A DNA stretch of 64,000 bases, from assembly GCA_965219135.1 (NCBI GenBank), contig CBDCMV010000002.1:737092-801091 (forward strand), in the 5' to 3' direction. Positions 3,714 through 56,219 of the stretch are shown in pieces (positions within the stretch are counted from its first letter, which is position 1; every line of letters starts with the position of its first letter). Origin of the DNA: Alphaproteobacteria bacterium (GTDB lineage Bacteria; Pseudomonadota; Alphaproteobacteria; VGEJ01). The position numbers and the translations under genes were made by a program. The notes under the pieces were generated by a model that was not told the origin of the DNA, did not search any database, and saw only the letters and a list, made by a program, of their open reading frames with translations.

Positions 3714-4346
3714 CTATTTGGTGCCGTAGAGGCGGTCTCCGGCGTCTCCGATACCGGGCACGATGTAGCCGTGGTCGTTGAGCCGCTCGTCCACCGCGGC
3801 GGCGAACAGCGGCACTTCGGGGTGCGCCCCGTGGAAGGCCGCGATGCCCTCGGGCGCGGCCAGCAAGCAAACGAACTTCACCGCGCCGGCGGCGTCCTCC
3901 TTGAGGCGCTGGACCGCGGCCACCGCCGAGTTGCCGGTGGCCAGCATCGGATCGACGACGATCACCTGTCGCTTCTCGAGGTCGGTGGGCACCTTGTAGT
4001 AATACTCCACCGCGACCAGGCTGACCGGATCACGGTAGAGCCCGATATGGCCGACCGGTGCGCTCGGCAGCAGGTCGAGCATGCCATCGAGAATGCCGGT
4101 CCCCGCGCGCAGGATGGAGACGATGCAAAGCTCCTCGCCGCTCAGGACCGGCGCCTTCATCGCGGCGATCGGGGTCTCGATCTCATGCTCGGTTAGCGGC
4201 AGGTCGCGGGTCACCTCGTAGGCCAACAGCAGGCTGATCTCGCGCAGCAACCGCCTGAAGTCGGCGGGCGGGGCGTCCTTGCGGCGCATCAGCGTCAATT
4301 TGTGCTGGACCAGCGGGTGATCGACGATGGTCACGGCTTGCGGCAT
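3714..4346 (-). CDS. upp: Uracil phosphoribosyltransferase
   Basis: 210 aa with the canonical UPRT sequence ([12 protein letters not shown]...[12 protein letters not shown]...[17 protein letters not shown]). TAG stop. Confidence 0.9.
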
Positions 4347-18872: not shown

Positions 18873-19310
18873 GTGGAGGTGTTCACGATCGGCTTCACTA
18901 GAACCTCGGCCGAGAGATTTTTCGGCAGGTTGCAACGCGCCGGGGTGCGAGGCGTGATCGACGTCCGCTTGAACAACACCTCTCAGCTCGCGGGTTTCGC
19001 CAAAGCGCGGGATCTCGAGTTCTTTCTCAAGGCCGTCGGCGACATCGAGTACTCTCACGAGCCGCTGCTCGCGCCGAGCCGGGCGATCTTCGAGGTCTAC
19101 AAGAGGCTCAGGGGAAGCTAGGCCGAATTCGAGCGCCGGTTTCTTGGCCTAATGGAGGCGCGCGAGATCAAGCGCCGGCTGGACCCGAGTCTCTTCGATC
19201 GAGCCTGTCTGTTGTGCAGCGAGGACAGGCCCCACTACTGTCATCGCCGGCTGGTCGCGGAGTATCTAGCCAAGCGGTGGGACGCACCAGTCCGTATCGC
19301 GCATCTCTAG
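18873..19310 (+). pseudogene. DUF488-family protein interrupted by an in-frame TAG (19119-19121) at the conserved Trp position
   Basis: GTG start, FTIGFTRTSAERFF...VIDVR..., then TAG, then the same frame continues AEFERRFLGLME...ACLLCSEDRPHYCHRRLVAEYL (DUF488 C-terminal CHR motif). The family consensus at the stop is ...S-W-EEFE..., so this is TGG to TAG. Confidence 0.6.
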
Positions 19311-19373: not shown

Positions 19374-19583
19374 TCAGTCGACGACTTTTAGGTTCTCGGC
19401 CGAGCTCTTGCCGTTCTGGCCGCGCTGCAACTCGTATTCAACGTTCTGGCCCTCGCTAAGGCTGGAGATGCCGGCGCGCTCCACCGCGGAAATGTGGACG
19501 AAGGCGTCCTTGGAGCCGTCCTGGGGTTCGATAAAGCCATACCCCTTGACGGGGTTGAACCATTTTACGGTACCTGTTGGCAT
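19374..19583 (-). CDS. cspA: Cold-shock protein (CspA family)
   Basis: [34 protein letters not shown]... with RNP1/RNP2 motifs. The 13 N-terminal codons of the track ORF are an extension. Confidence 0.9.
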
Positions 19584-19844
19584 AGTGTCGTTCCTTGTCA
19601 ATCGTTGTGGGCGTCCGCACACGCTGCGCGAACGGGTCTCAGCTCACCGAAATCTGAGGAGTATTTTCGCTCTGTCGGCGTGACGAAGCAGCATACGCCG
19701 GGGGTCTCTTAGAACTGATGCAGCCCATATAGGCCCCGGCCGCCGCGATTGCAACCCATTCCCCGACCGGGGGACCTCTACACGGCCTCCTGGGCCGAGG
19801 GCTCCCAGTGAAGCGCGGGCCCGCGGCGCATCATTTCTTCCAAT

Positions 19845-21131
19845 GGGCACCTCTAAGAATTCTCCTTTTTCGGGCGTCGTCGATTTAGAATCGGGTTGCC
19901 GATTTGTTGATAGCGGGAGGCGTGGTTGATGGGTCAGATGGGGTTTTTCGATCTTGGGAACCGGTATTCCGGTCTTGACGCCAAGAACGAGCCGCTTTTG
20001 AAGATCGACGGGGTGGTTCCGTGGGAAGACTTGCGCGCGCGTCTTGAGGCGGTGTGGCGGCGTGCGGACAAGGCGCGTAAATCGCGGGCGGGACGCAAGC
20101 CGTGGGATGCGATTGTGATGTTCAAGACGATCATTCTGTGCGCGCTCTACAATCTCTCGGACGACCAAGTTGAGCATCAGATCCGTGACCGCCTGTCGTT
20201 CATGCGATTTCTGGGGTTGGGTCTGGAGGGCCGGGTTCCCGACGCCAAGACGGTGTGGCTGTACCGCGAACAGTTAACGCAAGCTGGCGTGATCGAGGCC
20301 TTATTCGAGACGTTCGATGGCTACCTGAAGGATCAGGGCTATCTGGCGATGGGCGGCCAGATCATCGACGCCTCGATTGTGGCGGTACCCAAACAGCGCA
20401 ACAGCCGCGAGGAGAACGCGCGGATAAAGGCGGGCGAGACGCCGGCAGGCTGGGAGGACAAGCCGGCAAAGCGGCGCCAAAAGGATGTCGAGGCGCGGTG
20501 GACTAAGAAGCACGGCAAGAGCCATTACGGTTACAAGAACCATGTCAACGTGGACCGTCGGCACAAGCTGGTGCGGCGCTATCATGTGAGCGACGCGGCG
20601 GAGCACGACAGCCAAGTCCTCGACGATATCCTGGATGGGGACAACACGGCTTTGGGTGTGTGGGCGGACAGCGCTTACCGCTCGGCGGAGATCGAGGCGG
20701 TGCTGAAGGAGAAGGGGTTGCGGAGCCGGATCCATCGCAAGGGCCGCCGCAACAAGCCGCTGAGCGAGCGCGAGAAGCAGGGCAACAAGACCCGTTCGTC
20801 GGTTCGGGTCCGCGTCGAGCATGTCTTCGGGGCCCAGAGCAACGACATGGGCGGGACGCTGGTGCGTAGTGTCGGGCTGGTGCGGGCGAAGGCGCGGATC
20901 GGGTTGAAGAACCTCGCCTACAACATGCGCCGCCTGGTCCAACTGGAGCGTCTCGCGGCGGCCGTGTGACGATACTCGGAGAAGGAGACCGCCTGGGGAC
21001 GGTCTTGTGGCGGAAATAACTCAATTGGAGCGTGGAAGACCCCGAAAATCTCGGCTCCGGCATGGCTGGAGCTGGTGACAGCCTGGTTAAACAATATCCT
21101 CCGACAACTCACCAATTCTTAGAGGTGCCCC
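19845..21131 (+). mobile_element. IS5-family insertion sequence (about 1.29 kb) with 16-17-bp terminal inverted repeats and a 5-6-bp target-site duplication
   Basis: IRL GGGCACCTCTAAGAATT at 19845-19861 and IRR AATTCTTAGAGGTGCCC(C) at 21114-21131. Flanking direct repeat CCAATG/CAATG on both sides. Single DDE transposase ORF inside. Confidence 0.8.
19926..20969 (+). CDS. IS5-family DDE transposase
   Basis: 347 aa (TTG start) with the typical IS5/IS1031-group sequence (...IIDASIVAVPKQRNSREEN...WADSAYRSAEIEAVL...). Confidence 0.9.
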   Translation: MMGQMGFFDLGNRYSGLDAKNEPLLKIDGVVPWEDLRARLEAVWRRADKARKSRAGRKPWDAIVMFKTIILCALYNLSDDQVEHQIRDRLSFMRFLGLGLEGRVPDAKTVWLYREQLTQAGVIEALFETFDGYLKDQGYLAMGGQIIDASIVAVPKQRNSREENARIKAGETPAGWEDKPAKRRQKDVEARWTKKHGKSHYGYKNHVNVDRRHKLVRRYHVSDAAEHDSQVLDDILDGDNTALGVWADSAYRSAEIEAVLKEKGLRSRIHRKGRRNKPLSEREKQGNKTRSSVRVRVEHVFGAQSNDMGGTLVRSVGLVRAKARIGLKNLAYNMRRLVQLERLAAAV

Positions 21132-21504
21132 AATGTTATCGATGGACAGACGTGCCTTTCAACGTAGGCGATCAAACTGGTGGCCACCGACCGCACATTC
21201 GTCTCGACGTCGGGCTCGGTGCATCGGCCCGCCTCGTCGAATGCGCTTTGGACGCCGGGGACCGACACCCCGCCGGGAAGGCGCCCGCAACCCGTTCGCG
21301 CAGCGCCCGCATGGGCTGCGAATCGGCGCCGCTGCCCGGAAGCGGCAGGTCCACGTCCCCGGGGTCGAATTCGTGGACCGAGAAGCGACCGTGGTTGATG
21401 ACCTCGTCGATCGCCAGCGCCAGCGCTTTGGCGGTGTAGTTGCCGGGACGGGCGGTGCCCAATATGGCCACGATACTCGGGCCATCGTTTCCTCGATCGC
21501 TCAT
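21132..21504 (-). pseudogene. NADPH-dependent FMN reductase-family gene, frameshifted (about 21285) and truncated at its 3' end by the IS5 insertion; the last about 19 codons lie left of the IS (19787-19844)
   Basis: N-terminus MSDRGNDGPSIVAILGTARPGNYTAKALALA...MRALRERVAGA is a flavodoxin-like FMN_red fold. A probable continuation (...VSVPGVQSAFDEAG...) is in another frame and runs into the IRR. Joining the flanks after removing the IS and one copy of the duplicated CAATG extends the ORF (...CPSITLEEMMRRGPALHWEPSAQEAV*). Confidence 0.5.
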
Positions 21505-21507
21505 CGG

Positions 21508-21918
21508 TTAGTCCTCCGTTGCCGCCGGTGATTCGACCGGCCAGTGATCTGCCACGCGTACCGCTTCGGTCGCGCCCGGCCACGGCGGCATCGTGACGAG
21601 CACGAAGACCAAGGGCTCTACCCCGGCGCGGAACTGAAACTCAGTACCAAGCGGAATCGTCAGCCCCATGCCGGGGCCGACCTCGACGACTTCTTGGCGA
21701 CCGTCGCGCTTGCGCCACACCTCTCCTTGGCCCGAGACGACGTACCAGATTTCTTCGACACTTCGATGAATCACGGCCTTCGACGTGTCTCCGGCGGGCA
21801 GGGTGCAGTGGGCCATGCTGCCGCCGGCGAGGACCGGCAAGACGCGGATCTCGGATCCGTCCGGCGCCAGCGCGTCATAGTCGGCGCCGACGCGGATCGT
21901 GGCGAAGTGCTCGCCCAT
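21508..21918 (-). CDS. Cupin-domain protein
   Basis: 136 aa with a cupin_2 beta-barrel signature (...GEVWRKRDGRQEVVEVGPGMGLTIPLGTEFQFRA...). Confidence 0.65.
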   Translation of the reverse strand: MGEHFATIRVGADYDALAPDGSEIRVLPVLAGGSMAHCTLPAGDTSKAVIHRSVEEIWYVVSGQGEVWRKRDGRQEVVEVGPGMGLTIPLGTEFQFRAGVEPLVFVLVTMPPWPGATEAVRVADHWPVESPAATED

Positions 21919-21924
21919 CGGGTG

Positions 21925-22374
21925 CTAGCGGCGCCTGGAAATGCGTGTGTGCAGGGCGCGCAGGTATTTGCGGTCGGCCTCGTCGAGTTCGCCCTCGGCG
22001 ATATCCTCTTTGTAGCCCTTGAGTTCTTCCCGTGTTGCCTCCCCAAGCTGACGTCGCGCCAGCATCTTCTCGATCATCGCCAGGGGCTCTGCGTCGCGGG
22101 CATCGCGGACCTTGCCCGTAAGCGCCTCGGCGTCGATCTCGACCTCGGGCTCCGCCTCCGCCTCGTCCTCGTCAACGTCGTCGTCAACGTCGTCGTCGAC
22201 GTCCTCGAACGCCGGCTCCTCGGCATCCTCGGGCGTGAGCAACGCGTCCCAGCCCAAGCCCGATTCGCTGACCTCCTTTTGAAGCGTCCGAGCCGCTTCG
22301 AGGACATCGGCGTCGTCTTCGCTGCCCAAGCGATCGAGTAGTTCAATGATTCGCTCGCGGTTTAGTTCCGGCAT
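21925..22374 (-). CDS. Hypothetical acidic protein (Asp/Glu-rich central tract)
   Basis: 149 aa from the internal ATG (MPELNRERIIELLDRLG...DVDDDVDDDVDEDEAE...). I recognise no domain. Confidence 0.45.
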   Translation of the reverse strand: MPELNRERIIELLDRLGSEDDADVLEAARTLQKEVSESGLGWDALLTPEDAEEPAFEDVDDDVDDDVDEDEAEAEPEVEIDAEALTGKVRDARDAEPLAMIEKMLARRQLGEATREELKGYKEDIAEGELDEADRKYLRALHTRISRRR

Positions 22375-56142: not shown

Positions 56143-56219
56143 CGGAGTGTAGCTCAGCCTGGTAGAGCACCGTCTTCGGGAGGCGGGGGCCCGCGGTTCA
56201 AATCCGCGCACTCCGACCA
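56143..56219 (+). tRNA. tRNA-Pro (anticodon CGG)
   Basis: Cloverleaf: acceptor CGGAGTG/CACTCCG (7 bp), D-arm GCTC/GAGC, anticodon stem CCGTC/GGCGG with loop TTCGGGA (CGG, G37), T-arm CGCGG-TTCAAAT-CCGCG, encoded CCA. Confidence 0.85.

Follow-up and report, generated by a model that had tools for sequence, protein, structure and literature searches.

An IS5-family insertion sequence with a 4-bp target duplication in an FMN_red pseudogene of an alphaproteobacterial contig

The insertion sequence and the interrupted gene

We analyzed a stretch of 64,000 nucleotides of the alphaproteobacterial contig CBDCMV010000002.1 (positions 737,092 to 801,091; here referred to as the window), in which a complete insertion sequence (IS) of the IS5 family separates the 3' end of an FMN_red-family gene from the rest of that gene. 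The IS is located at window positions 19845 to 21130 on the plus strand. The interrupted gene is read on the minus strand, directly behind a cupin gene, and is followed by a gene for a cold-shock protein (csp). An earlier reading of the same DNA, here named the original prediction, had described an IS5-family element within an FMN-reductase-like gene.

The element was 1286 bp in size and bounded by perfect 17-bp inverted repeats, which confirmed the perfect terminal repeats and the size of about 1.29 kb that had been predicted. The left terminal inverted repeat (IRL, 19845 to 19861, plus strand) was located by exact sequence match and reads GGGCACCTCTAAGAATT. The right one (IRR, 21114 to 21130, plus strand) reads AATTCTTAGAGGTGCCC and is the exact reverse complement of GGGCACCTCTAAGAATT. 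With up to three mismatches allowed, just these two matches to the terminal repeat were found in the 64-kb window, and 0.04 were expected from shuffled sequences. The G+C content of the IS was 60.9%, as compared to 66.7% for the window. Neither a second copy nor a fragment of the IS was detected in the window by blastn and tblastn, so that there is no composite transposon within these 64 kb. In a plasmid collection searched by megablast no nucleotide match to the whole IS was found.

The sole long open reading frame (ORF) of the element is a DDE transposase gene at 19929 to 20969 on the plus strand. It encodes 346 amino acids followed by a stop codon at 20967 to 20969 and contains no frameshift. 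The frame is open from a TTG at 19926 (347 amino acids) or from the ATG at 19929 (346 amino acids). Public gene calls start at the ATG, and a GGGAGG motif is located 9 nt before it at 19914 to 19919. The TTG-initiated version of 347 amino acids was absent from the public collection, while the exact protein of 346 amino acids was recorded on about 15 public contigs.

Two Pfam domains were found in the transposase, DUF772 at residues 56 to 129 (5e-20, 72 bits) and DDE_Tnp_1 at residues 144 to 334 (1.7e-24, 87 bits). Among the NCBIfam models the best was NF033581 'IS5 family transposase' with 282.3 bits (cut-off 140), and the models for IS1182, ISNCY, IS982 and the other IS5 sub-models each scored under their own cut-off. 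NF033581 is also the best model of E. coli IS5 (366 bits), ISKpn26 (368 bits) and ISAba23 (286 bits). These matches bear out the predicted single DDE transposase of the IS5 family.

An alignment of five sequences, comprising the window transposase, IS5, ISKpn26, ISAba23 and a Pseudosulfitobacter homologue, revealed three invariant acidic residues: D147 (IIDASIV), D247 (WADSAY) and E297 (RVEHVF). We take them to be the catalytic triad, based on their conservation and on the motifs of the family. With the catalytic role assigned in this way, the DDE triad is intact. The catalytic C1 motif at 20817 to 20840 (residues 297 to 304) reads EHVFGAQS and carries a serine seven positions behind the glutamate (E297 +7). 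The EHVFGAQSNDMGG motif was identical in all 83 relatives checked.

The FMN_red-family pseudogene consists of two parts. The 5' part (21131 to 21504, minus strand) starts at 21504, three bases past the stop of the cupin gene (21508 to 21918), and begins with MSDRGNDGPSIVAILGTARPGNYT. Its interrupted frame runs to ...CPSITL and is then read into the IS as GHL and a stop codon. The displaced 3' end (19778 to 19844, minus strand) comprises the last 20 codons, EEMMRRGPALHWEPSAQEAV, and the stop codon at 19778 to 19780. In total, the pseudogene spans 19778 to 21504; the extent of 19787 to 21504 given in the original prediction did not include the stop codon. Displacement of the 3' end had been recognized correctly, but 20 codons are cut off and not about 19.

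Excision of 1290 bp, i.e. the IS and one copy of the 4-bp repeat next to it, restored ...ERHVCPSITLEEMMRRGPALHWEPSAQEAV and a stop codon on the minus strand. The continuous ORF end expected from the original prediction was therefore obtained. The restored C-terminus LEEMMRRGPALHWEPSAQEAV matched the family consensus LEEMMRRGPALHWEPPA... of intact homologues with 211 amino acids, and this agreement validates the 1290-bp excision.

The remnant in the window reached 20.9 to 21.6 bits with the Pfam profile FMN_red (PF03358), which is under the cut-off of 24, because a deletion within the gene took the profile positions from about 72 onward. A search with a conceptual joined protein, composed of the two frames and the restored C-terminus, led to a compact family of 211 to 215 amino acids with an FMN_red domain. 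The best family match, P0001, is a syntenic protein of 211 amino acids that is about 85% identical and scores 93.8 bits with FMN_red. The assignment of the interrupted gene to FMN_red is based on orthology to P0001.

P0001 is encoded on a 14.7-kb contig (here named L080), on which the gene order cupin, FMN_red, CSD, RidA and DUF72 is the same as in the window. Three segments were aligned at the DNA level: window 25439 to 21281 with L080 1 to 4224 (84% identity), window 21280 to 21130 with L080 4424 to 4574 (82% identity) and window 19844 to 19316 with L080 4570 to 5100 (88% identity). The sequence of L080 at the exact place of the IS and one CAAT is CGATAATATTGGAGGAGATGATG; it contains ATTG once, and the L080 gene of 211 amino acids is intact. 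An empty-site allele, which had been named as a check on the insertion, is thus present in a syntenic relative (84-88% identical in the two longer segments). A degenerate empty-site pattern was also run against JGI metagenome contigs; the nine hits were rejected as chance, since none was similar to the locus at the nucleotide or protein level.

The alignment to homologues showed that the window protein lacks 66 consecutive residues from its middle (TGVIFATPEYHGTYSS...HVGAIVL), which form the core of the domain. On the DNA level, positions 4225 to 4423 of L080 (199 bp, i.e. 66 codons and one base) are without a counterpart in the window, where the deletion junction lies between 21281 and 21280. 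The original prediction of a gene that is additionally damaged held insofar as this second lesion shifts the frame, but it is a clean 199-bp deletion and not a simple frameshift. The deletion is located 150 bp from the end of the IS. As it does not abut the element, it is not an IS-adjacent deletion. Both the deletion and the insertion were found in a sister assembly, in which the gene call is the same fragment of 110 amino acids, and neither was present in L080. Judged from these alignments, the FMN_red copy of the window is a pseudogene with two independent lesions and not a functional member of the family.

Target duplication and copies at other sites

At the left junction the sequence reads ...TTCTTCCAAT/GGGCACC... 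and at the right junction ...GGTGCCC/CAATGTTATC... (slashes indicate the borders of the IS). From the window copy alone the boundary is ambiguous, and the length of the duplication was set from other copies. A scan of a collection with one genome per species yielded 233 stretches that encode relatives, of which 79 loci were kept, and a look-up of the exact transposase added 7 further places. The duplication length was judged on 44 full-length copies besides the window locus, which were delimited by alignment to the window element.

Directly outside GGG.../...CCC, a perfect 4-bp direct repeat was present in 32 of the 44 copies. In the same register, repeats of 5, 6 or 9 bp were found in none of them, a 2-bp repeat in two and a 3-bp repeat in one. 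When left and right flanks were re-paired at random, the mean number of 4-bp matches was 3.2 and the maximum 11. The target duplication of the element is 4 bp, here CAAT, with the left copy at 19841 to 19844 and the right copy at 21131 to 21134. The single ATTG of L080 is the reverse complement of this sequence. Since the same length recurs in so many other copies, the flanking CAAT is a genuine target duplication and not a coincidence, as the original prediction had considered as an objection to itself.

The duplicated tetranucleotides were A/T-rich, with TTAA (six times) and ATAA (five times) being most frequent, followed by TTTA, TAAA, ATTA and others. Of the 32 copies, 24 had a C directly before the duplication and 18 had a G directly after it. 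Based on the A/T-rich duplications and the outer C and G, the preferred target is the palindrome C/TTAA/G (slashes here indicate the limits of the duplication). The window site C/CAAT/G has the preferred outer bases, and for this reason a repeat of 6 bp seemed visible.

The direct repeat had been predicted as CCAATG/CAATG. This was right with respect to a genuine duplication at the junctions, and the question is whether its length could be 5 or 6 bp (CAATG or CCAATG), with GGCACC...GGTGCC as the true IS ends and inverted repeats of 16 bp. At both window junctions CCAATG can be read by counting the outermost G and C of the IS as flanking bases, and the 6-bp reading also works in 11 of 39 tabulated copies. 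However, terminal GGG and CCC were kept in all 44 other full-length copies, whatever the flank, so that the terminal G and C belong to the IS in every copy. Furthermore, at least 14 of the 32 copies have a perfect 4-bp repeat but do not allow the 6-bp reading. The empty site of L080 (ATTGG) shows that the G behind the duplication belongs to the host and by chance equals the first base of the IS. We therefore rejected a duplication of 5 or 6 bp, which we regard as very improbable. The flanking C...G reflects the target preference and lies outside the 4-bp duplication.

Among the 44 full-length copies, 12 were without a duplication (flanks of the loci L001 to L044 and L081 to L085 were surveyed). 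This suggests recombination between IS copies or adjacent rearrangements in the respective genomes.

The sister assembly is represented by contig ERZ25067264 (569 kb), which was obtained from another sample. Over 7041 bases it differs from the window by 9 substitutions (99.87% identity), and the insertion is present there as well, again between CAAT repeats (L086). Four more copies are located on this contig, all of which encode the identical transposase, and three of them are full-length and 99.9-100% identical. The copy L084 is 100% identical over 1286 bp and is flanked by the duplication ATAA. L085 and L083 differ by one substitution each; the former is flanked by TAAA, the latter is without a duplication and abuts an IS1595-type gene. 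The fourth, L087, is an interrupted copy. A further assembly contained two copies with the duplications TTTA and CGCA.

Identical copies of 1286 bp at different sites, each with its own duplication, point to recent transposition. This agrees with the recent, possibly active element of the original prediction, for which a count of copies elsewhere had been proposed as a check.

Related variants were more widely distributed. Those with 98% identity occurred in about 20 copies in the alphaproteobacterial metagenome-assembled genome (MAG) CAXXSU01 and in one to a few copies in four other species-level genomes. A variant with 89% identity was found 17 times in another MAG, and relatives with 80-84% identity at the protein level were present in about 20 copies each in a Bauldia MAG and in a MAG of the Rhizobiaceae group. 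Because identities of 98-100% span genomes in a collection with one genome per species, a recent horizontal spread is indicated. Taken together with the sister contig, the element is real, multicopy and recently mobile.

An assembly artefact, in which a repeat was misplaced at this locus of a metagenome-assembled genome, deserves consideration insofar as the closest matches are metagenome assemblies and a multicopy element is the setting in which misassembly occurs. Against it, a 4-bp sequence that occurs once at the L080 site is precisely duplicated at the junctions, and the identical insertion recurs in another assembly, which comes from a different sample and shows 9 substitutions in the surrounding 7 kb. 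We consider an artefact to be practically negligible.

The surroundings of the loci L081 to L087 (ERZ25072076 and ERZ25067264) were crowded with mobile elements, some of them nested. IS1595-type, IS630-type (DDE_3), IS3-type (rve) and IS91-type transposases as well as a fragment of a group II intron maturase were found there, and PIN/PhdYeFM toxin-antitoxin genes were also nearby. The host lineage appears to be heavily loaded with IS elements.

According to the established chemistry of DDE transposases, the single transposase would bind both 17-bp inverted repeats and cleave at the ends of the element. The 3'-OH ends would then be joined to the target strands at phosphates that are offset by 4 bp, and gap repair by the host would result in the 4-bp duplication, here CAAT. 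In the window, a copy was inserted 20 codons before the stop of a gene of 211 amino acids belonging to the NAD(P)H-dependent FMN-reductase family, the last gene of a cupin/FMN_red pair. The gene was also hit by the independent internal deletion of 199 bp and is thus a pseudogene. We regard the event as an ordinary, routine IS insertion in a pseudogene, and we infer that it was most likely selectively neutral.

Some observations weigh against this reading. There is no other copy in the 64-kb window, and the copy number of the genome from which the window originates is inferred from the sister assembly. The CAAT of the window is unlike the usual duplications of A and T only, such as TTAA, ATAA, TTTA and similar ones. 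Finally, the serine at E297 +7 occupies a position where IS5, ISKpn26 and ISAba23 have a lysine, which taken alone might suggest impaired catalysis; the many identical copies argue against such an impairment.

In summary, the interpretation of the original prediction is supported, with corrections of the duplication length, the second lesion and the codon count. For annotation, a single mobile element flanked by 4-bp CAAT duplications should be entered, and the ORF fragments on its two sides should be combined into one FMN_red pseudogene that has two independent lesions. Its near-identical copies mark the IS as a live source of insertions, and of breakpoints in recombination or assembly, both in this lineage and in several uncultured alphaproteobacteria related to it. 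Beyond annotation, the insertion has little significance.

Neighbouring genes and a possible effect on csp

The csp gene (19374 to 19583, minus strand) is a neighbour outside the element. It encodes a cold-shock protein of 69 amino acids (Pfam CSD, 4.5e-24), and a syntenic CSD gene of 69 amino acids is present in L080. The start codon at 19583 to 19581 and the left end of the IS are 261 nt apart; csp and the transposase gene are directed away from each other. The predicted position of the IS, about 260 bp upstream of the cold-shock gene and oriented away from it, was hence correct. The stretch from the FMN_red stop to the csp start (194 nt) is intact and belongs to the segment that is best conserved in comparison to L080 (88%).

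With Rfam at gathering thresholds no RNA family was detected in or near the element and no cspA leader model was matched; the only match in the window was a tRNA at 56143 to 56216. In a consensus scan, the left end of the IS contained neither a promoter-like site facing outward nor a promoter for the transposase. Nothing in the sequence indicates an effect of the IS on csp, and the sole foreseeable one would be an interrupted read-through from the upstream genes.

An adaptive insertion would mean that the IS cuts csp off from cupin/FMN_red read-through or adds a promoter or bending activity, in this way alters cold-shock expression and was under selection for this effect. There are precedents, as E. 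coli IS5 supplies promoter or bending activity at bgl, flhDC and glpFK. The element of the window separates csp from the co-oriented upstream genes, at a distance of 261 nt from the csp start, and the insertion has persisted for some time, as it is common to two assemblies with 9 differences in 7041 bases. On the other hand, the leader and promoter region of csp is intact and 88% identical to that of the IS-free relative, and at the left end the consensus scan gave no promoter-like site that faces outward. A separate deletion has destroyed the interrupted gene, in keeping with a locus under relaxed selection, and the neighbouring DUF488 gene has an in-frame stop as well. We therefore consider an adaptive role to be unlikely and prefer the neutral insertion.

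The DUF488-family gene is located at 18873 to 19310 on the plus strand, and its in-frame TAG at 19119 to 19121 falls into the middle of the domain. When this stop was read as tryptophan, a single PF04343 match of 79 bits extended across it. The gene call in the sister assembly ends at the same stop. In L080 the gene is absent, with 62 bp at this place as compared to about 460 bp in the window. Together with the FMN_red pseudogene, this makes two degraded genes within 2.7 kb.

A promoter-like site with the elements TTGAAA and TAACAT, spaced by 18 nt, was found at 21162 to 21133 on the minus strand. It consists of host sequence beside the right end of the IS, points into the element and is a consensus match only, within the former coding region.

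A perfect inverted repeat of 16 nt connects the csp leader region (CGCTGCGCGAACGGGT, 19622 to 19637) with the FMN_red remnant (ACCCGTTCGCGCAGCG, 21290 to 21305), the latter copy being 10 nt from the deletion junction. RNA pairing by means of this repeat was rejected and the repeat is probably due to chance: it is not conserved in L080, where 10 of the 16 positions are kept, and the window contains 12 inverted pairs that have seeds of 14 nt or more and lie no further than 3 kb apart.

Further upstream, an ORF at 21925 to 22374 on the minus strand encodes a hypothetical protein of 149 amino acids, which has no Pfam match in the record of the sister assembly. A strongly acidic repetitive stretch, EDVDDDVDDDVDEDEAEAEPEVE, is encoded at 22120 to 22240 (minus strand) by GTCGTC/GACGTC repeats.

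Comparison with known IS elements

The element is almost certainly an autonomous insertion sequence of the IS5 family and belongs to its IS5 group. The latter assignment was made because every structural criterion that could be tested agreed with this group, namely a single ORF, a size of about 1.3 kb, ends beginning with GG, a duplication of 4 bp and NF033581 as the model in common with IS5. Other groups of the family have different duplication lengths: 9 bp in IS903, 3 bp in IS1031, 8 bp in ISH1, 2-3 bp in ISL2 and 2-4 bp in IS427.

E. coli IS5 (InsH) and ISKpn26 resemble the window element in having one long ORF with DUF772 and DDE_Tnp_1 and NF033581 as the best model, as well as a size of about 1.2-1.3 kb, ends that begin with GG and a 4-bp duplication. 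The alignment of their transposases spans 92% of the window protein, but the amino acid identity is just 25-27%. The window transposase has 346 instead of 326 amino acids, with an insertion of about 20 residues after the first catalytic aspartate, and the terminal repeats are unrelated beyond the GG. At position +7 of the catalytic glutamate, IS5 and ISKpn26 have a lysine, whereas the clade of the window element has a serine.

The target sites differ as well. E. coli IS5 makes a 4-bp target duplication with the motif YTAR (PMC5009759). In the clade of the window element the target is C/TTAA/G with A/T-rich duplications, and YTAR fits only 6 of 32.

The nearest annotated relatives are carried by plasmids of the Roseobacter group and of Cereibacter. 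They are unnamed 'IS5 family transposase' genes of Pseudosulfitobacter pseudonitzschiae, Cereibacter azotoformans and Sulfitobacter, for example WP_224557657.1 on NZ_CP086799.1. They share 71-72.5% amino acid identity with the window transposase over 99% of the length and have the same domain layout, the NF033581 match and the EHVFGAQSNDMGG motif. Among the relatives with an IS name, the nearest in the collections searched was ISAba23, an IS5-like element of Acinetobacter baumannii, with 31.5-34% identity over 98% of the length. It matches the same NCBIfam model, but has a lysine at E +7 and is without the insertion of about 20 residues.

Possibly, the alphaproteobacterial clade within the IS5 group represents a distinct sub-lineage, which would be characterized by a serine in place of lysine or arginine at E +7 in 83 relatives and by the palindromic target C/TTAA/G. 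It might be expanding at present (about 20 copies per genome) and moving horizontally between alphaproteobacterial species at 98-100% DNA identity, and the host lineage may accumulate pseudogenes, as FMN_red and DUF488 are at most 2.7 kb apart. We put this forward tentatively and hold it to be rather doubtful than probable.

The 45 collected copies define the ends, the duplication length and the target preference of the element and are enough to register it as a named IS. In comparison to the known systems the element is, at most, one more representative of a familiar kind, and it is distant from the named elements, with identities of at most 34%.

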